Positions 1 to 50,473 of a stretch of DNA of 64,000 nucleotides are shown here, piece by piece (the stretch's first letter is position 1; each line of letters begins with the position of its first letter). The position numbers and the translations under genes were made by a program. The notes under the pieces were generated by a model. It searched no databases, was not told the DNA's origin, and worked only from the letters and a program-made list of their open reading frames with translations. This DNA is from Candidatus Micrarchaeota archaeon. Its GTDB lineage: Archaea; Iainarchaeota; Iainarchaeia; JAADDC01. The stretch spans positions 5,512-69,511 of the forward strand of contig JALTXX010000016.1 of the NCBI GenBank assembly GCA_027046625.1. The letters run 5' to 3'.

Positions 1-128
1 AAGGCCTCATCTTGGCTATCTAATTTTGGAGTTGGACGGAATGGAGGATTTGCTTCCAATAATAAAGGAGAAAGGTATAGATGGAACAAGCGTAGATGTA
101 CCGGATATCGTAGATAGCCAACTTGATA

Positions 129-392
129 TCATTGTATGATGAAGGAGGTATCTCCCTTTTCATATCCCAAGATCAACTTTTTAACCTCCTTTTTGGTTCG
201 AAACGTATATATGATAATGGAATCCCCATCTTTTATAAGTTGTTTTAAGGTTTCCTTAACCAGCAACAATTGTGATGGGGTTAAATCCCCCTCAAAAACA
301 GAATTCTGCACCCAATGAAGATGTCTACGAAGAAAATTTCTTACTTTATCTATACGAGATACATCTACATCATAAACGATGATTACATACAT
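129..392 (-). CDS. cas2: CRISPR-associated endoribonuclease Cas2
   Basis: 87 aa, N-terminal MYVIIVYDV ... VQNSVFE pattern typical of Cas2; immediately downstream of cas1 on same strand. Confidence 0.85.
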   Translation of the reverse strand: MYVIIVYDVDVSRIDKVRNFLRRHLHWVQNSVFEGDLTPSQLLLVKETLKQLIKDGDSIIIYTFRTKKEVKKLILGYEKGDTSFIIQ

Positions 393-393
393 A

Positions 394-1353
394 CTACCAC
401 CATATTACGAGGGGTTGGTACTTCTCCATACCTAATAAATGTTTCACGAGCTTTAAAACCTCCAAGTGAATGAGTTTTCTGTAGCTTACGTTCTTCCTTA
501 GCTTTCTATGCCTAATTGTGCTTCTTAGTTTTTCCTCCCAATATCTCAAGAAGATAGCCTTCCCTTCATTGTTAAGTAGCACATTTCCTATATCCCCCTC
601 AAAGTGATGCTCTTTTAGTATCTTTTTATTTACCAAGTACAAAATTAGCCTATCCACTATAAACGGTTTAAATATCTCAGCAATGTCCAACGCCAAGCTA
701 AACCGCCTTTCATAAGGTTCGTGAAGGTACGAAATGCCGGGGTGAAGGGGAGTTCTTCTGATTTGGTTTAGAACCTCTGAATAGAGAAGGGAATACCCGA
801 AGCTTAATAATGCATTCCCCATATTAGACGGGGGTCTTCTGCTTCTTTCTCTTATGCGAAACTGTTCAGGTAATATGGAGTCCAAGAGAGAATAATATTT
901 TCTCTTGTATTCCCCCTCGAACCCCATAAGCTCCCTTACATTATCTATACCTTCTATTCTACCAAGATCAGGTTCAAACTCTATATTGTATTGTGAGAGT
1001 ACCCTTTTCACGTTTAGTAAGGCGCCTTCAACGAATCTTTTAGCGAGATACAATCTTTTTTCTCTGTTAATAAAATGCTCCGATTGTCTTATTACGAGAT
1101 CTCCGGACACTCTCTTCTCTCTTGGTAGAAAAGATCCTTCGTAGTTTCCATACATATCAAAGAAGTGTACTTCGATCCCTTTATTTCCCAATAGCAGCAG
1201 TATCTGGGACGATATGGATACTGGGGCTAGTAGGTAAATGCTTTCAATCCTCTCTATAGGAAGAGCACGTTTGTTTCCATCTTTGTCTATAAAGTAAAGG
1301 GTGTGGTGTTTGCGTACAATCTTTCCGGGCTTGGCTATGTAGAGGTTTGGCAT
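394..1353 (-). CDS. cas1: CRISPR-associated integrase Cas1
   Basis: 319 aa; Cas1-like sequence and size; 1-nt gap to cas2, 4-nt gap to cas4. Confidence 0.88.
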   Translation of the reverse strand: MPNLYIAKPGKIVRKHHTLYFIDKDGNKRALPIERIESIYLLAPVSISSQILLLLGNKGIEVHFFDMYGNYEGSFLPREKRVSGDLVIRQSEHFINREKRLYLAKRFVEGALLNVKRVLSQYNIEFEPDLGRIEGIDNVRELMGFEGEYKRKYYSLLDSILPEQFRIRERSRRPPSNMGNALLSFGYSLLYSEVLNQIRRTPLHPGISYLHEPYERRFSLALDIAEIFKPFIVDRLILYLVNKKILKEHHFEGDIGNVLLNNEGKAIFLRYWEEKLRSTIRHRKLRKNVSYRKLIHLEVLKLVKHLLGMEKYQPLVIWW

Positions 1354-1357
1354 ATTG

Positions 1358-1849
1358 TCACCCGAAGCACAGTTCTCTGTAAGCGCACTTTCTGCAATAA
1401 GGCTTCTTAATGGGTTTTGGAGGCTTGTCCTGTGAAAGTATTTTTCTTATATCCTGTAAGATCTGCTGAATGTGTTCAGTATCAGATACCTTTACAACTT
1501 TCTTTGTTGAGGGATAGTGTATGTAACCAATAGTGTCAATGCCCTTGGAGCGTAGCACATAAAGGTAGTACTTTACCTGTGCTATATCCGCCTCCTCTAA
1601 TGCATCCGATTTCTTGGTTTCATGTACTTCTAGTATACCACCTTTTCTTACAAAATCCACCTTTATCCTATCTATTAACAGTTCCTTCTCCTCACCCTTA
1701 TATCTAATCTCATGAAGTATTCTTCCCATCCTTACAAGCTCTGACTCCTCTTCCATGGTTATGCCGCGCGAGAACAACCATAGTTTTGTGGGGCACACAA
1801 CATAATAGTGTACCATCATCCCTGTTATGAGATCTTTATCAGTTAGCAT
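1358..1849 (-). CDS. cas4: CRISPR-associated exonuclease Cas4 (RecB-like nuclease with Fe-S cysteines)
   Basis: 163 aa; N-terminal CPTKLW and C-terminal CRKCAYRELC cysteine cluster typical of Cas4. Confidence 0.8.
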   Translation of the reverse strand: MLTDKDLITGMMVHYYVVCPTKLWLFSRGITMEEESELVRMGRILHEIRYKGEEKELLIDRIKVDFVRKGGILEVHETKKSDALEEADIAQVKYYLYVLRSKGIDTIGYIHYPSTKKVVKVSDTEHIQQILQDIRKILSQDKPPKPIKKPYCRKCAYRELCFG

Positions 1850-1886
1850 ATATGATGTATCGTTATCTACAATCTAAAAACACTAT

Positions 1887-3113
1887 TTAGACTAGATCCT
1901 TCCAGGTGAGAACGCCACCGTCCTTTGCTAGTTTAAAGTTTGTTGCCCTTAGAAAGCTAACAAGGGACGGATGCACGAAGCAACTCGGAGGTTCCAGCCT
2001 AAACACTCCTTTTTCTACAGGAATAAGTGCATGGTATGTGTTAGAGTATGGGAAAGGTTTTCCGTCGGAGATGACAATGTACGGGCCCTCCATAGCATGC
2101 TTAAACTGGTCAAAGGATCCCATAAGCTTGTAGAGTAAGAAGGCGTACTCCACGATATGATTGGGCACATAAAAACCATCTCCTCTTAAACCGATAATAC
2201 TTTTTGCCCATTCATATCCTACAAGCTTGGTATTCCAGAAATTGTGCAGTATTGATGTATTACCAGTTTTTTGAATGTATAATGCTAATGGAATTAGGCA
2301 AAGATTACAGTAACCCCCAAAAATCTCTCTAAGTTTCTTCAAAAGGCCGTTATCTGTTGTTATGTTCCCTACAACTCTTCTAAGATGCATGTCTCTAATC
2401 TTTTCAGGAAGGAAAGGATCCTCTGGATGGGAAAGTGCATATTTCAGAAACGTGTTTTCTTCATTTTCTATTACAAAGTAGAATGTATCTTTGTCTCTTA
2501 GAAGATTTAGTAGAGCTATAGCATGGGGGTGTGGAAGGAACTTTCTGATTACACTTTCGGGATGCTCAGAGTGCCATCTTATTGCCCCTATAGCTTCCCA
2601 AATATGTTTGATCCTGCCCTTAGGATACCAATGGGTATATATATCGACAGCTCTATCTACATCCTTCTCAAAATATTTCCATAGCCACTCCATAACATTG
2701 TCTGGCACGTATTCCGGTCCTAGATCAAGTGCTATCTCCAGCAATGTATTGGGATCTCCAGAGTACTCCACTCCTTTGTTCAGTATTGTCATAATTCTCT
2801 CCTTTTCTATTATATACATACCATCCTCTGCTGCGGACAACGCTGCAGAGTATATCCTTAGCAGATTCCAGAACTCTTTGTGTTTGTATGCACCTTTTTC
2901 AAATAGCTCCTCAATAACCCAATATAGCCTGTTGTAAGTAAATAGAAGCTCAGCTAACTCCCTAAATACCCTATCTCTATCAACCTCCCAAACTTCTACT
3001 AAGATTCTTGCTTGTTTGCCCGGAGGCAGACATCTTTCCCACTTATAGTATTCTCCTAGGTCTTTGTTTTCTCTTATCCTCTGTACGATATCTCTTACAG
3101 ATGGCACTTCCAT
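1887..3113 (-). CDS. uncharacterised protein, first gene of the cas4-cas1-cas2 transcription unit
   Basis: 408 aa complete ORF, 37 nt upstream of cas4, same strand; no recognisable motif. Confidence 0.5.
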   Translation of the reverse strand: MEVPSVRDIVQRIRENKDLGEYYKWERCLPPGKQARILVEVWEVDRDRVFRELAELLFTYNRLYWVIEELFEKGAYKHKEFWNLLRIYSAALSAAEDGMYIIEKERIMTILNKGVEYSGDPNTLLEIALDLGPEYVPDNVMEWLWKYFEKDVDRAVDIYTHWYPKGRIKHIWEAIGAIRWHSEHPESVIRKFLPHPHAIALLNLLRDKDTFYFVIENEENTFLKYALSHPEDPFLPEKIRDMHLRRVVGNITTDNGLLKKLREIFGGYCNLCLIPLALYIQKTGNTSILHNFWNTKLVGYEWAKSIIGLRGDGFYVPNHIVEYAFLLYKLMGSFDQFKHAMEGPYIVISDGKPFPYSNTYHALIPVEKGVFRLEPPSCFVHPSLVSFLRATNFKLAKDGGVLTWKDLV

Positions 3114-3144
3114 AGTACTTTTGATGTTTTAAAGGATAAAAACA

Positions 3145-3217
3145 TGCGCCGGCCGGGATTCGAACCCGGGTCGTCGGCGTGGAAGGCCGACGTCCTACCA
3201 GGCTAGACTACCGGCGC
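3145..3217 (-). tRNA. tRNA-Gly(TCC)
   Basis: hand-folded cloverleaf: acceptor GCGCCGG/CCGGCGC, T-loop GGTTCGAATCC, anticodon loop CTTCCAC. Confidence 0.8.
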
Positions 3218-3279
3218 ATGTGGCCCCGGCCAGAGACACCGGTTCATGGGTCTCCGGGCGTCGCAACCGGGGCCTCCCA

Positions 3280-3354
3280 CGGCCCCGAGGGGATTTGAAC
3301 CCCTGACCTTCGGCTCCGCAAGCCGACGCCCTATCCAGGCTGGGCCACGGGGCC
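3280..3354 (-). tRNA. tRNA-Arg(GCG)
   Basis: acceptor GGCCCCG/CGGGGCC, T-loop GGTTCAAATCC, anticodon loop TTGCGGA. Confidence 0.8.
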
Positions 3355-3357
3355 CTA

Positions 3358-3431
3358 AGCCCCGGGCGGGATTCGAACCCGCGACCTCCCGCTTACAAGG
3401 CGGGCGCTCCGCCGGGCTGAGCTACCGGGGC
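3358..3431 (-). tRNA. tRNA-Thr(TGT)
   Basis: acceptor GCCCCGG/CCGGGGC, T-loop GGTTCGAATCC, anticodon loop CTTGTAA; only 3 nt from tRNA-Arg. Confidence 0.8.
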
Positions 3432-3440
3432 ATGTTAGGA

Positions 3441-3515
3441 TGCTCCGGCCGGGATTTGAACCCGGGTCACGGGCTCGAAAGGCCCGCATGCTTGACCGGA
3501 CTACACCACCGGAGC
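3441..3515 (-). tRNA. tRNA-Glu(TTC)
   Basis: acceptor GCTCCGG/CCGGAGC, T-loop GGTTCAAATCC, anticodon loop CTTTCGA. Confidence 0.8.
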
Positions 3516-3540
3516 CTGCTAAATTAATGAAATGGTTAAC

Positions 3541-3547
3541 TTTTATA
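3541..3547 (+). promoter_or_regulatory. TATA box (TTTTATA) about 29 nt upstream of the proS ATG; leaderless-type archaeal promoter
   Basis: A/T box in otherwise GC-rich tRNA region; spacing typical for crenarchaeal leaderless genes. Confidence 0.4.
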
Positions 3548-3572
3548 GTGTTGCTGCACCACTAAATACACC

Positions 3573-5009
3573 ATGTCAGAGGAGTTGGGGGTTTCCCATC
3601 CTAAGAGTTCTTTCTCCCAATGGTACCTTGATGTGGTGAGAAAAGGGGGTTTTATAGACCAGAGAACTCCTGTAAAGGGATGTGATGTGTTTACACCGTG
3701 GGGGTATGGCATATGGGAAAGGATTATGCAGGAAGCTGATAAATTATTCAAGGAAAGAGGCGTCAAAAATGCTTACTTCCCTATGTTTATACCAAAATCC
3801 CTCTTAGAAAAAGAGTCTGAACATTTTGAAGGGTTTGTACCAGAAGTGGCGTGGGTAACCAGGGGAGGGAATGAGGAGTTGGATGAGTGGCTTGCCATAA
3901 GACCTACGTCTGAGACCATTATGTATTACATGTTTTCTCAATGGATTTCATCGTATAGGGATCTTCCTCTCCGGATAAACCAGTGGGTAAATATTGTTCG
4001 ATGGGAAACCAAGGCTACAAAGCCCTTCCTCCGCTCGAGGGAGTTTCTTTGGCAGGAGGGGCACACGGTTCATACCTCCTTGTCTGAGGCAGATGAAGAG
4101 GTAAGGGAGATGATAAAGGTTTATGACAGGGTTGTAAGAGGACTGTGCGCATTGCCCTATCTACTCCTTAGAAGGACAGAATCAGACAAATTTGCAGGTG
4201 CATATTACACAATAGCCTTTGATACATTTATCCCAGAGGCTGGAAGGATGTTGCAAGTTGCTACTGTACACAATCTGGGTCAAAATTTTTCCAAAGCGTT
4301 TAATATAACCTTCAAAGACAAGGACCAGAGAGTAAAACACCCATATCAAACTTCCTGGGGCTTCTCCACAAGACTTATCGGGGCGGCAATTGCTGTGCAC
4401 GGAGATGATAGGGGTGCCATCCTGCCGCCGGCGATAGCACCTATCCAGGTGGTTATCATCCCCATTATATTTAAGGGGAAGGAGGAGGTGGTAATGAACC
4501 ATGCAAAAAAGATTTACAACGAGCTAAAGAAAAGAGGAATCAGGGTTCATGTGGATGACAGAGAGTGGTACACACCCGGGTGGAAGTATAACGAGTGGGA
4601 ACTAAGGGGGGTTCCTCTTAGGATAGAGGTGGGCCCGAAGGATGTAGAGAGGGAAGGATTTACACTTGTAAGGCGAGATACGGGGGAGAAGATATTTGAG
4701 AAAAATATAGATACTATACCTTCTCTTCTTGAGGATGTACAGCGCAATTTATATACGCGCGCAGAGCAGAGATTGCGGGAATCTATTGTTGAGGCGAAGG
4801 ATATGGAATCTTTGAAAGAAGCTATTACGTCAAACAGAATAGGTAGAACCTATTGGTGTGGAGAAGAGAGCTGTGAGATAAATATCAAGGAGGAAACGGG
4901 CGGAGAGATAAGGGGATACAATCCAGAAGGGGAAGAAGTAGGGAATAATGTGTGTGTATACTGCGGGAAAAGGGCTAAGTATGTGGTTTATGTGGCTAAA
5001 TCTTGGTAA
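3573..5009 (+). CDS. proS: prolyl-tRNA synthetase (archaeal/eukaryal type, class II)
   Basis: 478 aa; class II aaRS motifs and ProRS-like sequence (FPMFIPKSLLEKE, C-terminal Zn-binding Cys). Confidence 0.88.
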   Translation: MSEELGVSHPKSSFSQWYLDVVRKGGFIDQRTPVKGCDVFTPWGYGIWERIMQEADKLFKERGVKNAYFPMFIPKSLLEKESEHFEGFVPEVAWVTRGGNEELDEWLAIRPTSETIMYYMFSQWISSYRDLPLRINQWVNIVRWETKATKPFLRSREFLWQEGHTVHTSLSEADEEVREMIKVYDRVVRGLCALPYLLLRRTESDKFAGAYYTIAFDTFIPEAGRMLQVATVHNLGQNFSKAFNITFKDKDQRVKHPYQTSWGFSTRLIGAAIAVHGDDRGAILPPAIAPIQVVIIPIIFKGKEEVVMNHAKKIYNELKKRGIRVHVDDREWYTPGWKYNEWELRGVPLRIEVGPKDVEREGFTLVRRDTGEKIFEKNIDTIPSLLEDVQRNLYTRAEQRLRESIVEAKDMESLKEAITSNRIGRTYWCGEESCEINIKEETGGEIRGYNPEGEEVGNNVCVYCGKRAKYVVYVAKSW

Positions 5010-5014
5010 ACGGT

Positions 5015-5713
5015 TCAAAGGGATGGGTAATGAAGGAAGAAGTTTAGTATTCTTAGAAATTTTAGCTGATTTTCTACCAATTCTGGATAAAGATATCCGT
5101 GTGGCGGAAGAGGATGTTTGAATACCTTGAGCTTTTTATCTTTGCTCAATGTGTTGTATAAAGGGTCTGAGATCACGTTATCGACCATCAGTATGTACCC
5201 ATCGTGTTTGGTGTTGTTTACAATCTTCCTTATGGTGTGAGGGAGCTCCTGTGAGGCGATGTTATAGAACTCCTCTGTTATGAGTTTTGTATGATCTATG
5301 TTGGCCACCTTGCTGGAGGTGGAGCCTCTACTGATAACGATAGACCCTATGGTGGGTGCCTTTGCATAGTAAACTTTTACATTCTTGTTTTTTGGAACGT
5401 TTACCTTTCTCAGAATCAACTCTATTCTTGAGAGATTGTTATCTGGTTCAAAGGGCATGCCCTCCTCTCCATAGGAGTGCACAATGATGGCAGGCCTCTT
5501 ATACTTCTTGAGGAGCTTGTTGATGGTGAAATCCTGGGGGTACATATCTCTTATGGCGCTCAGTAGCAACCTGAGGTCTTCAGAGTTTTTAATGTGGGGG
5601 CGAAGCATCTCAATGATGCGTGCAGGCGGTACTTCCTCCACAATGTGGATGTGCTTGGAGGATCCTCTAACCTTCTCAAAGAGAGATCTTAACACCATGT
5701 ATGTATAATACAA
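5015..5713 (-). CDS. hypothetical protein
   Basis: 232 aa ORF, coding-like composition, no motif recognised. Confidence 0.4.
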   Translation of the reverse strand: MYYTYMVLRSLFEKVRGSSKHIHIVEEVPPARIIEMLRPHIKNSEDLRLLLSAIRDMYPQDFTINKLLKKYKRPAIIVHSYGEEGMPFEPDNNLSRIELILRKVNVPKNKNVKVYYAKAPTIGSIVISRGSTSSKVANIDHTKLITEEFYNIASQELPHTIRKIVNNTKHDGYILMVDNVISDPLYNTLSKDKKLKVFKHPLPPHGYLYPELVENQLKFLRILNFFLHYPSL

Positions 5714-7178: not shown

Positions 7179-8684
7179 ATGTTTGTAAGGAAGGAACACA
7201 TAGAGGCACTCGCATCCCTCAAGGATGGAAGGGTTGTAAGAGGAAACGTTGTAACAGAGTTATACGCTCAGGGCTTGATAGATAGGGACAAACACATAAC
7301 AGAAGCAGGAGAGAAGCTTCTTTCGCTTAGGTTGGGTGATGTGTTTATAGCTAGTGATGTAATAAAGATAGGGGAGTTGTATGAAAAAAGCAAGTATATT
7401 CCAGCCCTGTGGGAGGAGGAACTGGAAAGAAGAGGACTGCAAAAGGAAGTGCTGCCAAAAATACTAGATATATATAGAATATCCAAGCCAAATCTCATTC
7501 TCACACCTCAAATAACCTCCTTCATAGACGAGATTCCTCCGGCGGGAGAATACGACATATTGATCAAGGCAAAAGACGTGTATGGAGAAGGGATCATAAA
7601 CCTTATGCAGGCCATGAGATTGTTGTATATTTCCCCTCCTTATGAGAACGGAAGAACCTATGCACTCAGGGTGGGTGCCAGAAAACTCCAAGGGCTCCTA
7701 TCTCTGACGGGTACCATAGTATTGGAAGAGCGGGATATGAACGCTTTGAAGAGGGAGGAGCCCACGGAAAAGCTTATAGATTATGGATTGCAGGATAAGG
7801 AAGGAAAAACTACAGAGATGGGTCAGGTAGTAAGGGAGATATACACAGAGGAGGAGTATGTGAGACCGGTATATCTCTTAGAGGATGAAATAGAGGCTTT
7901 GAAGCGTTTGGAAGAGGGAAAAGAGATTGATAGAGGGACATATCTTATGCTCCAATTTAGGGGTATGTTGGATGAGAATGGAAATCCTACTCCCGAAGGG
8001 AAAAGACTTGCATCCATGGGGGAGATTACCCCAGAAGGGGCTAGAGCCGTGGTGTATAGCTATGTAGGTGAGTTCCCTCACAAAGAGTGGCTGGAAGCGG
8101 CAAGAAGAGAACGTTTAATAGACTGGTGGATAACCTCAAAGGGTGAACTTATGTTGGAATTCTCAAGGAAAGCTATTTCATTTCCCTACCTTACCAAGTA
8201 TGATGTTGCAATTTTGTTGTTCCTTCCGAGGAATGAAGGTAGGACGGTAGAGGAACTGGAGAAAGAGGTAGCTGATAAAGTGGGGAGGTTTGAGCGCGCA
8301 GTGGGGGAGGCTGAAAGCAAAGGATTCGTGAGAGTTTTGCAGAATGAAAGCGTAATCCTTACACCCTTTGGGGAGAGGATGAAGGAGGTTGTAGAGTATG
8401 CAAACACCACAGAGCTATTATCTAAAACATTTATAGTAACGCCGCACTCATGGAAGGTTATAAGGGCTATAGGAGAGCACCCAGAGGACATAAACAAGCT
8501 GTGGAAGAAGGCAGAAGAAAATAAAAGAGATTACTACGAGGAGCTAACTAAATATGTATCCAAGGAAACGAGAATAGAGGAAAAAGAGGTAGAGAAGATA
8601 TTAAAACTGCTTAGAATAACCGGATTCCTTGGAAGTAAATCCCTTACTGACGCTGGTAGAAAGCTCTTTAATATCCTTTCTTAA
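7179..8684 (+). CDS. hypothetical protein (about 500 aa)
   Basis: long ORF, divergent from rps2; start placed at MFVRKEH so that a shared A/T box (7143-7153) sits about 26-30 nt upstream; ORF track starts at 7128. Confidence 0.45.
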   Translation: MFVRKEHIEALASLKDGRVVRGNVVTELYAQGLIDRDKHITEAGEKLLSLRLGDVFIASDVIKIGELYEKSKYIPALWEEELERRGLQKEVLPKILDIYRISKPNLILTPQITSFIDEIPPAGEYDILIKAKDVYGEGIINLMQAMRLLYISPPYENGRTYALRVGARKLQGLLSLTGTIVLEERDMNALKREEPTEKLIDYGLQDKEGKTTEMGQVVREIYTEEEYVRPVYLLEDEIEALKRLEEGKEIDRGTYLMLQFRGMLDENGNPTPEGKRLASMGEITPEGARAVVYSYVGEFPHKEWLEAARRERLIDWWITSKGELMLEFSRKAISFPYLTKYDVAILLFLPRNEGRTVEELEKEVADKVGRFERAVGEAESKGFVRVLQNESVILTPFGERMKEVVEYANTTELLSKTFIVTPHSWKVIRAIGEHPEDINKLWKKAEENKRDYYEELTKYVSKETRIEEKEVEKILKLLRITGFLGSKSLTDAGRKLFNILS

Positions 8685-9671
8685 ACTGGGGTGCACCGCC
8701 ACAAACCAGTGAATACGGGATTCCTCTGCCCTCTTGAGAGATCTGATGAGGGGTGAAGCTTCTAATAAGCTCCTACCATCCTCTAGGAATACATCTGGCC
8801 TTGAATAAAAGGCTGGCCTGTGTCCAAGGATAACATTATCCTCTCCGTATCTTTCAGAGAGGGTCTCATAAACCTCTCTTGCCTCCTCCTCGCTTCCCTT
8901 AAATACAAGTTTATATAGTCTTCTGTTTTCTATGTAATCCCACCACTTACTATTTATAGATCTGAGAGCTGAAACAATAGAATACTCATCCATAGATTGT
9001 ATCTCCTTTGCGCTATAGTGGTTCAACAGTTCTCCTACGGCTCTGGCAAACATCATATCTACTATTAGGGTGGTTCTATGAAAGTATACGGCATCTCCTA
9101 GAATGAATCTTGCAACATAGAGGTGCTCCACATTGGAAAGAATGTCCTCCTTTATGATGATTTTGCCTTTTTCAGCCTCAATATGTCTTATGATGCGTTC
9201 CCAAGGTATAATACCTACCCTAACACCTGTAAAGTACGAGTCTCTAACTAGATAGTCCAATCTATCTGTTCCCACTCCTCCATCGACTAGTATATTATCC
9301 TTATTACGAAGAATTTCTCGCCAAGAGAATGTACTGTTCTCTAACATCTCCTTTACGAGATGTTCCGTATACTTTTCATGATCAAAGGGATACCCGTTCA
9401 ATGAGAGGGCTATCTCTGTAAGGTGGGAGAAGGGTCCATGCCCTACATCGTGTAGCAACCCATAGACCGATAGTCTTTCGTCTATGTGAGAGGAGATGTA
9501 ATACACACCAATTGAATGCTCGAATCTGGTATGATGGGCTGAAGGGTACACCATCCATGCAAGGGAGAGTTGAGATATTCTTCTAAGCCTCTGAAAGAGA
9601 GGATGATCAACAATCTCCTGCACGGGGCTGATGTTAATGTCTCCATGTATAGGATCTCTTATGTGTGCCAT
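8601..9671 (-). CDS. HD-domain metal-dependent phosphohydrolase (dNTPase-like)
   Basis: 356 aa; H...HD...D motifs (RFEHSIGVYY, LLHDVGHGPFSH). Confidence 0.75.
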   Translation of the reverse strand: MAHIRDPIHGDINISPVQEIVDHPLFQRLRRISQLSLAWMVYPSAHHTRFEHSIGVYYISSHIDERLSVYGLLHDVGHGPFSHLTEIALSLNGYPFDHEKYTEHLVKEMLENSTFSWREILRNKDNILVDGGVGTDRLDYLVRDSYFTGVRVGIIPWERIIRHIEAEKGKIIIKEDILSNVEHLYVARFILGDAVYFHRTTLIVDMMFARAVGELLNHYSAKEIQSMDEYSIVSALRSINSKWWDYIENRRLYKLVFKGSEEEAREVYETLSERYGEDNVILGHRPAFYSRPDVFLEDGRSLLEASPLIRSLKRAEESRIHWFVAVHPSLRKDIKELSTSVSKGFTSKESGYSKQF

Positions 9672-41216: not shown

Positions 41217-42509
41217 ATGAGAGCCATCCTTCTGCTCCTTCTTTTGCCCTTCGCCTTTTCCAAGGTTGGTATATATGCAAAAGATTTTTCCGTAACTTGT
41301 TATAGATATAGCGACGATGTAAGATCTCTAAATCCAGAAACGCCGAATATTTTGGTGTCCTATCTGAGAGATGGAGGATTTGATGTGGAGCTCTTCTACT
41401 CTACGGAGGATATTGGAAAGTATGACGGAATAATAGTACTTGGATGTACATCTATGGATCCAAAGGATGTAGAGAGATTTCTATCCTTTGAAGGAAGGTT
41501 GGTGGTGGATGCTAGGGATGACAATCCTCTTTCTTCTGCGCTAGGTGTAAAGAGGAAGAGTTATCCCCTTGAGGGGACGGATACAAGCTCCTTCAGAGAC
41601 GTATATGTGAACATTACAAATGGGATCCTTCTAAAGCACGTTATAAAGGGAGGCCCGCTTGTAGGGTATGAAAGGATGTATTATGTTGGCAATCCCATAT
41701 TCCTTCCTTCAAGATTTAAAAGCGGGTTCTTGACCCCAACGGGAGAGGATGTGTTAGGAATAGACGATAACGTGGTGGTGACAGGATGTTTTTACTGTTC
41801 AGACCCGCTTCTGCTATATAACTTGGTGGACTGGGTAGAGGACGGGAAGATAGACTTCCCCAGCTTTTACATTGAGAGGGAGATAACCCCCTCCTTGGTG
41901 AGGGTAGGGGGTACCTTTGTGGACATTGTAAGGGTTAGGTCTCCCAAGGAGATGGAAGTGAGGGGAGAATACATATACGGTGAGGGCGGCGGGCAGTTCT
42001 GCAACTTTACACCCATAAATACAGAGTTTTCCGGTCCGGAAATAACAGGAAGAGAGTACGAAGTAGAAGCAAGGTTTATTTACAGGCCGGAAGAGCCCGT
42101 GTACTGCTATCTTCCTCCTGTAGTACTTGATCTTCTATGGAAAGCTTATAAGAGAACCGTAATACTTGATGCTATACCTGTAACAGTATCTTCTACTACT
42201 GTAGCGTTACCAGAAAGACCCCTAGACTGGATATACGTTTTGATTCCTCTAATTCTACTTATACTACTCTCTCCCTTCCTCTATAAACAGCTAAAAATAA
42301 GGAGGCTAAAGAAGCGATGGATTCAGTTAAAGAGGCTTATAGACAAGACAAACCAGCGTTATATGGCAAGGAAGATATCTAAAGAGGTGTATGAAGAGCT
42401 TATAACGGAGTATACGAAGGAGCTTCAGCTTGTTGAAGGAGCGCTCACCGAGCTTGGCGTAGATATAACCACCCTAGAACGATCACACCGCCCACAAGGA
42501 GAACGATAA
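41217..42509 (+). CDS. hypothetical secreted protein with C-terminal TM anchor and basic coiled tail
   Basis: 430 aa; N-terminal signal MRAILLLLLLPFAFS; TM near residue 345. Confidence 0.45.
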   Translation: MRAILLLLLLPFAFSKVGIYAKDFSVTCYRYSDDVRSLNPETPNILVSYLRDGGFDVELFYSTEDIGKYDGIIVLGCTSMDPKDVERFLSFEGRLVVDARDDNPLSSALGVKRKSYPLEGTDTSSFRDVYVNITNGILLKHVIKGGPLVGYERMYYVGNPIFLPSRFKSGFLTPTGEDVLGIDDNVVVTGCFYCSDPLLLYNLVDWVEDGKIDFPSFYIEREITPSLVRVGGTFVDIVRVRSPKEMEVRGEYIYGEGGGQFCNFTPINTEFSGPEITGREYEVEARFIYRPEEPVYCYLPPVVLDLLWKAYKRTVILDAIPVTVSSTTVALPERPLDWIYVLIPLILLILLSPFLYKQLKIRRLKKRWIQLKRLIDKTNQRYMARKISKEVYEELITEYTKELQLVEGALTELGVDITTLERSHRPQGER

Positions 42510-48133: not shown

Positions 48134-50473
48134 ATGCATCACTTTTTTAACCCACCCATCCCTATTACATTCATGTCCTATTCCATTATTTCACCCCTCC
48201 TCATTATCCTCATCGTAGTAGCCTCCTCCCTCTTCCTCTACAACACCGTCATCTCCTCTCTCCAACCCATCCAGTCCACTCCTTCCTTCGTTCCACTAAT
48301 CATCGAAGAATACAAACAGGAGGGCAACCTTCTCACCCTCTACATCAGAAACCCCTCAAACACCTCAGCCTCCCTCCCCTACATCCTCGTCAAAACAGAA
48401 GAAGGGATAACAAAGATTGACCTCAACGCCACCATCCCCCCAAACTCCTCCCAGCCCATCACGGTAGAGCTCCCCTCCACTACATCCCAAGAGATAGAGG
48501 TATCCCTTGGAGGAAGCACCTCCTACCAGGTCCAGATAGAGCCTACAACTTCACTGTCAGCTCTATTCTGCCCTATCCTACCTCCAGACTGCACAGACCC
48601 CAACTCTCCCTGTGCAGGCACCGGCTGTTTAGCCTCGTATCCAAAGATCTTAGGAACTTATACATTTCCTACTAATGTTGCGCACGATATGGCTCTTCAT
48701 CCAGAAAGAAACCTGGCCTTCGTAGTCAACGGATATTCAGGCCTCCTCACCATCAACTACACAAATCCTTCCTCCCCAACATTAGAAGGAAACTATGACA
48801 CCCCAGGCTATGCCCAGAGTGTAGCCCTTGATACCCAGAAGAACTTGGCCTTTGTAGCAGATAGATCATCAGGCCTCCTCATAATAAATTACGCTATTCC
48901 ATCTTCTCTTACCTTAGAAGGTAATTACAATACTTCTGGCGACGCTCTAGGAGTAGCCCTCCTCCCAGAAAAGAACCTCGCCTTCGTAGCCGACGGACTT
49001 TCAGGCCTCCTCATCATAAATTATACCAACCCCGCTAACCCTGTATTAGAAGGCAACTACAACACTCCAGGAACAGCTATCTCTGTGGCTCTCGATCCCG
49101 AAAAAAACCTTGCCTTTGTAATCGATGGCAATTTACAAATTGTTGACTACACCAACCCATCATCTCCAACCCTGGTAGGAAGCTATGCCACCCCAGATAA
49201 TGCATTTTCGGCTGCCTTACTTCCCGGGATGAATATAGCTTTTGTGGTGGTTGGTTACTCCGGTATTCTTATTATCGATTACACAGACCCCACAAACCCC
49301 ACTTTAATTTCTGAGCATAACACTTTAAGCCCAGCGATTGATGTGGTTCTATCTCCAGAGAGTAACACCGCGTTTGTAGGCACCTACGACTCTGTCATTG
49401 TTATAGATTATACAGATCCGGCAAATCCTGTAGTAGAGAAGAATTTCTTTATTAGTATAAATTACTCCATAGCCTTTTCTTCAGACAGGAACCTTTTATT
49501 TACGGGCTCATTCCATCAGATTAACATCATTGATTACTCGCAGCCTGACACTGCCCCATCGCTCCTTACTAACTACCCTATAAGCATAATAACAAGGGGT
49601 ACGGCAGTAGGAGTCATCCTCCTATCAGAGAAAAACCTTGCCTTTGTAGCCGACAGGGACTCAAACTATGTCCTCATCATAAACTACACCGATCCTACAA
49701 CCCCTATTTTAGAAGGCAACTACAACACTCCAGGAACAGCTATCTCTGTGGCTCTCGATCCCGAAAAAAACCTCGCCTTTGTAATCGATGGCAATTTACA
49801 AATTGTTGACTACACCAACCCATCATCTCCAACCCTGGTAGGAAGCTATGCCACCCCAGGATATGCCCAGAGTGTAGCCCTTGATACCCAGAAGAACTTG
49901 GCCTTCGTGGCGGATAGTACCGCAGGTCTTCTAATAATCAGCTATACAGATCCTACCAGCCCTACTCTGGTAGGAAGCTATAGCGTACCATACTATGCTG
50001 CTGGTGTTGCTCTCCTCCCAGAAAAGAACTTGGCCTTCGTAGCCGACGGACCTTCAGGCCTCCTCATCATAAATTATACCAACCCCGCTAACCCTGTATT
50101 AGAAGGCAACTACAACACTCCAGGATATGCTGAAGACGTAGCCATAGATATAGAAAGAAATCTGGCCTTTGTAGCAGACAATGAAGCAGGTGTTCAAATA
50201 ATAGACTATACTATCTCCTCCTCCCCAGTAATAGCAGGATCCTACGACACCCCGGGCTACGTATTCAATGTAGCCCTCCTCCCAGAAAAGAACTTGGCCT
50301 TCGTAGCCGACGGACCTTCAGGCCTCCTCATCATCAACTACACTAACCCATCATCTCCAACCCTAGTAGCAAGATCGTATCCAGCGTCAACAGATGTAGC
50401 ATTGGATGGAAACCTGTTGTTTGTTGCTGGAGGAAACCTTTACGTTCTAAACATCTGCAACTGTTTGACTTAA
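48134..50473 (+). CDS. LVIVD-repeat beta-propeller surface protein with N-terminal signal anchor
   Basis: 779 aa; about 14 repeats of NLAFVAD-GxSGLLIINYTNPSSPTLxGxYxTPGxAxxVAL (LVIVD-type); start may be the internal Met at 48173. Confidence 0.7.
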   Translation: MHHFFNPPIPITFMSYSIISPLLIILIVVASSLFLYNTVISSLQPIQSTPSFVPLIIEEYKQEGNLLTLYIRNPSNTSASLPYILVKTEEGITKIDLNATIPPNSSQPITVELPSTTSQEIEVSLGGSTSYQVQIEPTTSLSALFCPILPPDCTDPNSPCAGTGCLASYPKILGTYTFPTNVAHDMALHPERNLAFVVNGYSGLLTINYTNPSSPTLEGNYDTPGYAQSVALDTQKNLAFVADRSSGLLIINYAIPSSLTLEGNYNTSGDALGVALLPEKNLAFVADGLSGLLIINYTNPANPVLEGNYNTPGTAISVALDPEKNLAFVIDGNLQIVDYTNPSSPTLVGSYATPDNAFSAALLPGMNIAFVVVGYSGILIIDYTDPTNPTLISEHNTLSPAIDVVLSPESNTAFVGTYDSVIVIDYTDPANPVVEKNFFISINYSIAFSSDRNLLFTGSFHQINIIDYSQPDTAPSLLTNYPISIITRGTAVGVILLSEKNLAFVADRDSNYVLIINYTDPTTPILEGNYNTPGTAISVALDPEKNLAFVIDGNLQIVDYTNPSSPTLVGSYATPGYAQSVALDTQKNLAFVADSTAGLLIISYTDPTSPTLVGSYSVPYYAAGVALLPEKNLAFVADGPSGLLIINYTNPANPVLEGNYNTPGYAEDVAIDIERNLAFVADNEAGVQIIDYTISSSPVIAGSYDTPGYVFNVALLPEKNLAFVADGPSGLLIINYTNPSSPTLVARSYPASTDVALDGNLLFVAGGNLYVLNICNCLT

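Follow-up and report, generated by a model that had tools for sequence, protein, structure and literature searches.

Type I-B CRISPR-Cas systems (clustered regularly interspaced short palindromic repeats and their associated genes) are found in methanogens, haloarchaea and Thermococcales. Their canonical gene order, which we see in locus L007, is cas8-cas7-cas5-cas3-cas4-cas1-cas2-array, with the adaptation genes following cas3 on the same strand. The type I-A systems of the Crenarchaeota have a separately transcribed adaptation cassette, csa1-cas1-cas2-cas4, together with the regulator Csa3. Csa1 is a Cas4-like nuclease and Csa3 combines a CARF domain with a winged helix-turn-helix, and both are recognisable conserved families. 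Here we consider the left end of a stretch of 64,000 nucleotides (nt) from Candidatus Micrarchaeota archaeon (contig JALTXX010000016.1), which we call the window. Its first 3,113 nt hold the adaptation genes cas4, cas1 and cas2, headed by a gene for a protein of 408 amino acids (aa). The initial annotation took this for an adaptation module with an unknown leader gene and no array or effectors in view, and it left two choices: a normal type I or III locus cut by the window edge, or a module working in trans from its effectors. We believe the first choice is correct, since cas3 enters the window and a contig carrying cas8b to cas5b joins it. Positions 1-3113 are very probably the right end of a single type I-B island cut by the window edge, with the 408-aa gene as a lineage-specific orphan passenger.

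The likeness to the crenarchaeal I-A arrangement is superficial. In both, the adaptation genes form a unit of their own apart from the effectors, with an extra gene at the head. However, the 408-aa protein matches no Cas, Csa or Csx profile, the Cas proteins score as I-B, and none of the I-A accessory families is present in the locus. The type I-B assignment comes from the shared gene complement and from the best profiles, which are Cas1b, Cas2b, Cas4b, Cas3b, Cas7b, Cas5b and Cas11b. Compared with the canonical I-B order, the adaptation cassette runs the other way, toward cas3, and the 3' ends of the two overlap; an orphan gene also stands ahead of cas4. The locus also departs from the textbook I-B in having a separate cas11b gene, and in its relatives the array sits beside cas6, distant from cas1-cas2.

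The identities of cas4, cas1 and cas2 hold when Pfam, NCBIfam and PADLOC profiles are used, and the coordinates and spacing of the four minus-strand genes were reproduced exactly (1 nt between cas2 and cas1, 4 nt between cas1 and cas4, 37 nt between cas4 and the 408-aa gene). All three Cas proteins lie above curated thresholds: Cas1 scores 409.6 bits against a cutoff of 304.1 for TIGR03641 (Cas1b), Cas2 56.2 against 24.5 for TIGR01573, and Cas4 87.8 against 65 for TIGR00372. Reading the Cas4 translation by eye, we find both the Fe-S cysteines and the RecB-type motifs (C19, C152, C155 and C161, a D...ExK motif and QxxxY). No CRISPR or tandem repeat was found anywhere in the 64-kb window, so any array would lie outside it, as had been supposed. 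PADLOC matched 27 families among the 73 open reading frames (ORFs) between 3.5 and 64 kb, and none of the 25 listed is a Cas family, in agreement with the earlier statement that interference genes do not occur to the right. The 128 nt to the left of cas2 had been described as free of repeats. This is true, but they are not empty; they belong to the last 46 codons (window 2-139, plus strand) of a convergent cas3, which encode the C-terminus of Cas3.

That Cas3 was recovered by extending the window leftward. An exact-protein look-up led to contig WANZ01000061.1 of assembly GCA_015521515.1 and to Logan contigs of run SRR10312489, all from sample S141 of a Brothers volcano hydrothermal deposit (SAMN12239309/SRR10312489). 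The extending contigs (L001) stretch 2,138 nt past window position 1, and together with the first 139 nt of the window they make up a convergent cas3, recovered as a 758-aa fragment. The fragment matches Cas3_HD, DEAD, Helicase_C and Cas3-like_C_2 in Pfam and Cas3b in PADLOC (6.6e-107). The 3' ends of cas3 and cas2 overlap by 11 nt (window 129-139). At the other end, the NCBI and Logan contigs recovered both break at the identical base, within the first HD motif of cas3.

The effector genes come from the same assembly. The nearest Cas3 homolog, P0002, is 38% identical over 96% of the query, and it led to a syntenic locus, L005 (GCA_054474525.1). A Cas7 search seeded from L005 then reached P0129, which is 53% identical and lies on WANZ01000015.1, again of assembly GCA_015521515.1; the same region is also present on an ENA scaffold from the same sample. 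A longest contig of 106201 is listed for P0129; this disagrees with the recovered contigs, which measure 2-5 kb, and it was left out of the evidence. These two contigs, L009 and L010, carry a partial cas8b, then cas11b, cas7b and cas5b, and finally the first 34 codons of a cas3. PADLOC matches Cas11b (92 aa) at 2.8e-6, Cas7b at 1e-58 and the I-B Cas5 at 2.3e-30. The partial Cas8b-like protein of L009 (360 aa) has no PADLOC match of its own, and it is 33-34% identical (E 3e-48) to its positional counterparts of 447 aa in L005 and 456 aa in another relative, L011. The 447-aa counterpart matches the PADLOC Cas8b profile at 5.2e-11; for the present genome the Cas8b signature of the subtype is an indirect one.

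The two contigs can be joined within cas3. The end of the effector contig and the start of the cas3 contig share a 9-nt in-frame overlap, GATGTGGTT (L001:15243-15251 and L010:2498-2506; cas3 codons 32-34), and the letters at the proposed junction read ...GAACATAGTACTGATGTGGTT|AATGAGGTAG..., with the end of L010 before the bar and that of L001 after it. The joined Cas3 has 789 aa and aligns to P0002 without interruption over residues 12-757. Its HD motifs (H30, HD66-67, H89, HH123-124 and D213) and those of the superfamily 2 (SF2) helicase (Walker A, DExQ, SAT and QRxGR) are all intact and in register with eight other Cas3 proteins. The joined gene thus encodes the HD nuclease and the SF2 helicase in one Cas3, and through the overlap and the continuous alignment it adjoins the I-B-type genes for Cas7, Cas5 and the small subunit. 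The 9-nt overlap falls where assemblies made independently from one set of reads all break off, and the break looks like a local gap in read coverage rather than a break induced by a repeat.

The idea of a module that stands alone or works in trans, functionally apart from the adjacent effectors, follows naturally from a view confined to the window, where neither effector genes nor an array are found. The inversion of the module relative to the canonical order of L007 could also be taken in its favor. We nevertheless consider this idea scarcely credible, and reject it as it stood in the initial annotation, because cas3 overlaps cas2 by its 3' end and a full I-B effector set in the same assembly abuts that cas3. 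In L005 the convergent ends of cas3 and cas2 overlap by 8 nt (L005:12342-12349), even though the two Cas3 proteins are only 38% identical. Since the convergent overlap has been retained in so distant a relative, the reversed orientation of the adaptation cassette appears to be a lasting trait of this I-B clade.

The relatives also give an idea of what lies further left. In L005 an array of 20 repeats is followed on one strand by cas6-cas8b-cas11-cas7-cas5-cas3, and then come the convergent cas2-cas1-cas4, a gene for a 196-aa protein and proS. The small-subunit slot, between the 447-aa Cas8b-like protein and cas7, holds a 100-aa protein. L011 has the order array-cas6-cas8-cas11-cas7-cas5-cas3, with at least 4 repeats in its array. 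In both relatives the array and cas6 are directly upstream of cas8b, with the array upstream of cas6 and thus at the opposite end of the locus from cas1-cas2. The repeats are 30 nt long with a spacing of 65-73 nt and read GTTTCAATCCCAGCTTAGTCTGATTTGAAC in L005 (array at L005:3952-5259) and ATTTCAACCCCAGATTAGTCTGATTTAGAC in L011 (array at L011:17-240). The outermost repeat of the L005 array (3952-3980) is degenerate. By analogy, cas6 and the array of the present genome are probably further left as well. The leftward extension that had been proposed delivered cas3, the Cas7 search delivered the effector contig, and an array was seen in L005 and L011 only. The best-supported reading is an apparently intact type I-B locus that is interrupted twice, at the window edge and at an assembly gap inside cas3; cas3 adjacency, the effector contig of the same assembly and the synteny with L005 are our reasons for it.

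We expect the system to behave like any standard type I-B. Its effector operon, cas8b-cas11b-cas7b-cas5b-cas3, runs rightward and ends at window base 139; cas6 and the array presumably lie further left. The adaptation cassette cas4-cas1-cas2 runs leftward and converges on that operon. Cas6 would produce the CRISPR RNAs, the complex of Cas8b, Cas11b, Cas7 and Cas5 would locate targets flanked by a protospacer adjacent motif (PAM), and the HD-helicase Cas3 would degrade them. Cas4, Cas1 and Cas2 would trim PAM-selected spacers and integrate them into the array beside cas6, several kb from cas2. In this archaeal I-B clade the array is at the far end of the locus, so that Cas1-Cas2 would work at a leader several kb away from where they are encoded. 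The assignment also removes a false lead, as the seeming orphan adaptation module with a mystery leader gene is the edge of a standard type I-B locus.

The leader gene itself is harder to place. It is certainly a gene: at this base composition, a frame would stay open over 413 codons by chance with a probability of about 4e-10. In its own frame the codon adaptation is 0.771; 48 other window genes have 0.762 +/- 0.024, and the five remaining frames score 0.65-0.73. Trp, His, Tyr and Phe are enriched in the protein. It belongs to no family in Pfam, NCBIfam, PADLOC or PHROGs; the sole line in Pfam is a GNAT domain at E 0.026, below threshold. Pfam, NCBIfam and PADLOC profiles contain no nuclease, NTPase or DNA-binding signature for it, so the original statement that it has no recognisable Cas, nuclease or NTPase motif is borne out. 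A word-indexed search of 5.8 billion proteins and an exhaustive phmmer search of 1.84 billion representatives (standing for about 15 billion proteins) both match the protein to itself alone. The phmmer collection covers the proteome of the closest relative, as Cas proteins of that assembly are indexed there. Nothing in the PDB falls below E 0.37 by sequence, tblastn against phage and plasmid records and a scan of IMG/VR give no match, and phmmer --max, run on every ORF in the window and in each fetched locus, again finds only the query.

Several named candidates were tried and dropped. A Cas8 paralog was rejected on an hhalign probability of 0.3 against the Cas8b alignment of the clade. A known accessory family (Csa1, Csa3, Csx or CARF) was rejected for want of any NCBIfam or PADLOC match, and with no curated profile matched the protein is not a Csa or Csx family member. 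A CRISPR-linked accessory by neighbourhood was rejected too, there being no homologs beside cas genes and an unrelated gene in the corresponding slot of L005.

The only interpretable feature of the protein is a predicted fold. Single-sequence AlphaFold2 models residues 1-163 with confidence (predicted local distance difference test, pLDDT, about 80) as helical hairpins throughout. The remainder falls below 50; it is helical with a short beta-containing C-terminus, and when residues 164-408 are modelled separately the pLDDT is 43, which is unusable. Residues 1-163 are predicted to form an ARM/HEAT-like alpha-solenoid, a protein-binding type of fold. Foldseek, which had been suggested for naming the protein, gives no match with E <0.1 in the PDB or <0.02 in BFVD; what it does return are generic solenoids of the ARM/HEAT/TPR type, and no name. 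The ARM/HEAT proteins among them (importins, and the helical-repeat parts of RAP-domain and RESC proteins) are 5-13% identical to the 408-aa protein. They are eukaryotic scaffold proteins without functional relation to it, and two thirds of the model is unreliable.

Window-wide upstream statistics bear on whether the 408-aa gene is transcribed together with the adaptation genes. We counted as operon-internal any gene that starts within 15 nt of the preceding one. A motif like a Shine-Dalgarno (SD) sequence, of the GGTG/GGAG type, precedes 26 of the 35 operon-internal genes and 8 of the 37 first genes, while an A/T box starting at -35 to -24 is found in 14 of those first genes. Such boxes upstream of first genes are expected for leaderless archaeal mRNAs. 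Within the cassette, cas1 has an SD-like GGGTGA upstream and cas2 a GGTGGT 4-9 nt upstream. No such motif precedes cas4, which has a TATA-like TTTTTAGA at -31..-24 from its ATG, and a run of five T residues directly follows the TAA stop of the 408-aa gene within the 37-nt spacer. The missing SD-like motif, with the T run and the TATA-like box in front, suggests a separate start for cas4. The 408-aa gene has TTTTTATCC at -29..-21 and TTTAAAA at -19..-13 from its ATG, and no SD; the first of these is comparable to the box upstream of the neighbouring proS, CTTTTATAG. To judge by these letters, the 408-aa gene may have a leaderless start like that of proS, and the 408-aa gene and cas4 probably each have a promoter of their own. 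The four genes had been read as one transcription unit. Their common strand and close spacing are as described, but co-transcription of the 408-aa gene with cas4 is unproven.

A more ambitious idea is that the 408-aa protein is a lineage-specific adaptation accessory, an alpha-solenoid adaptor that binds Cas4-Cas1-Cas2 or prespacer DNA and is co-transcribed as the first gene. It has real points in its favor. The gene is on the same strand 37 nt from cas4, its codon usage is native, and its GC content (0.406) is the same as that of the cas island: 0.403 for the cas8b-cas5b contig, 0.400 for cas3, 0.399 for cas1 and 0.404 for cas4. The housekeeping genes to the right are at 0.447 +/- 0.020, about two standard deviations higher, and the step from about 40% to about 45% GC coincides with a cluster of four tRNA genes. 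Because its GC matches the cas genes and not the housekeeping genes, the 408-aa gene is compositionally part of the cas island. Furthermore, L005 also has an extra gene at this place, translationally coupled to cas4 by a 4-nt overlap with its start. Nevertheless we think the accessory idea unlikely. The separate start suggested for cas4 argues against it, as do the missing nuclease, NTPase and DNA-binding signatures and the generic fold matches. The protein has no homologs in any library and hence no conserved association with cas genes, which is our reason for not calling it CRISPR-associated. The proposed check for homologs that always co-occur with cas4-cas1-cas2 therefore found nothing to count.

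The slot in L005 makes the same case from the other side. There the gene upstream of cas4 (L005:14037-14627) encodes a protein of 196 aa that has a hydrophobic N-terminal segment, belongs to no Pfam family and is alone in its cluster (size 1). This membrane protein is unrelated to the 408-aa protein (BLASTP E 0.47), and so the nearest relative fills the slot with something else. With no homolog among the 1.84 billion representatives and an unrelated gene in the L005 slot, the suggestion of a conserved adaptation accessory is left without support. Most likely the 408-aa gene is a lineage-specific passenger that occupies a variable edge of the island and is dispensable for adaptation. One could go further and suppose that the orphan and the 196-aa protein mark a fast-evolving accessory slot that heads the inverted I-B cassette, whose occupants influence the uptake of spacers or serve defence or anti-defence on their own. 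We regard this as quite improbable. If it were true, the 408-aa protein would found a new family linked to adaptation, so far hidden because too few relatives have been sampled.

The remaining idea is that the gene arrived with a mobile element or virus that integrated beside tRNA-Gly, and is its remnant or cargo, for instance an anti-defence or other foreign gene. It lies 30 nt from the 3' end of that tRNA gene, it is an orphan, and its GC is lower than that of the core genes. However, its GC equals that of the whole cas island and does not stand out, no integrase is present, and no direct repeat of a tRNA fragment occurs in the window or in the 5.5 kb leftward outside the other tRNA genes. 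The protein is also unmatched in PHROGs, BFVD, IMG/VR and the phage and plasmid records. We consider a mobile origin very unlikely.

Several points weigh against an island edge with a passenger gene, and they should be stated together. The join between the two contigs consists of 9 nt, a reading frame and homology, and no single assembled molecule runs across it. Neither cas6 nor a CRISPR array was recovered here, as the recovered sequence stops inside cas8b. The common strand, the 37-nt gap and the matching GC of the 408-aa gene would also fit co-transcription and a functional tie to adaptation. Only one syntenic relative shows what stands ahead of cas4, and the idea of a variable slot has an n of 2. 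Finally, few members of the lineage have been sampled: the closest ProRS shares 65% identity, and the closest Cas1, that of L005, 61%. Searches with Cas1, as a single sequence and as a two-sequence alignment, found no match in the contigs of species-representative genomes, so the lineage appears to be absent from that set, and a metagenome scan with Cas1 gave only loci 40% and 25% identical. Some of the orphan status of the 408-aa protein may thus reflect missing relatives and not true uniqueness. On present evidence the gene is unexplained, yet unremarkable for a poorly sampled hydrothermal archaeon. As a strict orphan it gains interest only if deeper sampling of the lineage yields conserved relatives beside cas genes.

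Table 1. Features at the left end of the window, with their positions and the evidence for each.
Feature	Position	Strand	Evidence
cas3, 3' end (last 46 codons, stop 137-139)	1-139	+	left-extended contig L001
cas2 (87 aa)	129-392	-	PF09827 8.8e-22; TIGR01573; PADLOC Cas2b 3.3e-29
cas1 (319 aa), type I-B flavour	394-1353	-	TIGR03641 cas1_HMARI; PADLOC Cas1b 3.7e-121
cas4 (163 aa)	1358-1849	-	PF01930 6.4e-54; PADLOC Cas4b 5.3e-56
Spacer between orphan gene and cas4 (37 nt)	1850-1886	-	run of five T; TATA-like box
Orphan gene (408 aa)	1887-3113	-	no family match
Putative promoter region of orphan gene	3114-3143	-	comparison of upstream sequences
Four-tRNA cluster: Gly-TCC, Arg-GCG, Thr-TGT, Glu-TTC	3144-3515	-	ARAGORN; Rfam; GC profile

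The four tRNA genes fill 372 nt and are 3-61 nt apart. The segment that contains them (3001-4000) has 52% GC in a window of 44.5% GC, as expected for a thermophile. In L005, proS adjoins the cassette without a tRNA cluster and in the opposite orientation. Downstream of that proS (L005:16106-21166), three large proteins (436, 654 and 548 aa) are encoded, each with a hydrophobic segment at the N-terminus and without a Pfam family. The 654-aa and 548-aa proteins resemble each other in motifs that contain Cys, and they may be secreted or exposed on the surface.

The remainder of the window is archaeal housekeeping DNA, with a ribosomal protein cluster, Cbf5, LonB, TruD, Topo VI-B, AglB and Trm1. 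A protein with HD and HD_assoc_2 domains (8601-9671) is also conserved near the locus in L005, and it is probably the source of the dGTPase match (1.6e-6) that PADLOC reports among the 73 ORFs. The other PADLOC matches there (a BrxL/CARF_LON-type AAA-Lon, mad2 and MTase_II) appear to come from generic domains in LonB, Topo VI-B and tRNA methyltransferases. Two ORFs have no Pfam family at E <= 1e-5: one at 5015-5713 on the minus strand (232 aa from a TTG start, 227 aa in the public record) and one at 41217-42509 on the plus strand (430 aa). Amid the housekeeping genes at 48134-50473 there is also a 779-aa protein of the beta-propeller type with LVIVD repeats (PF08309, 1.3e-51).

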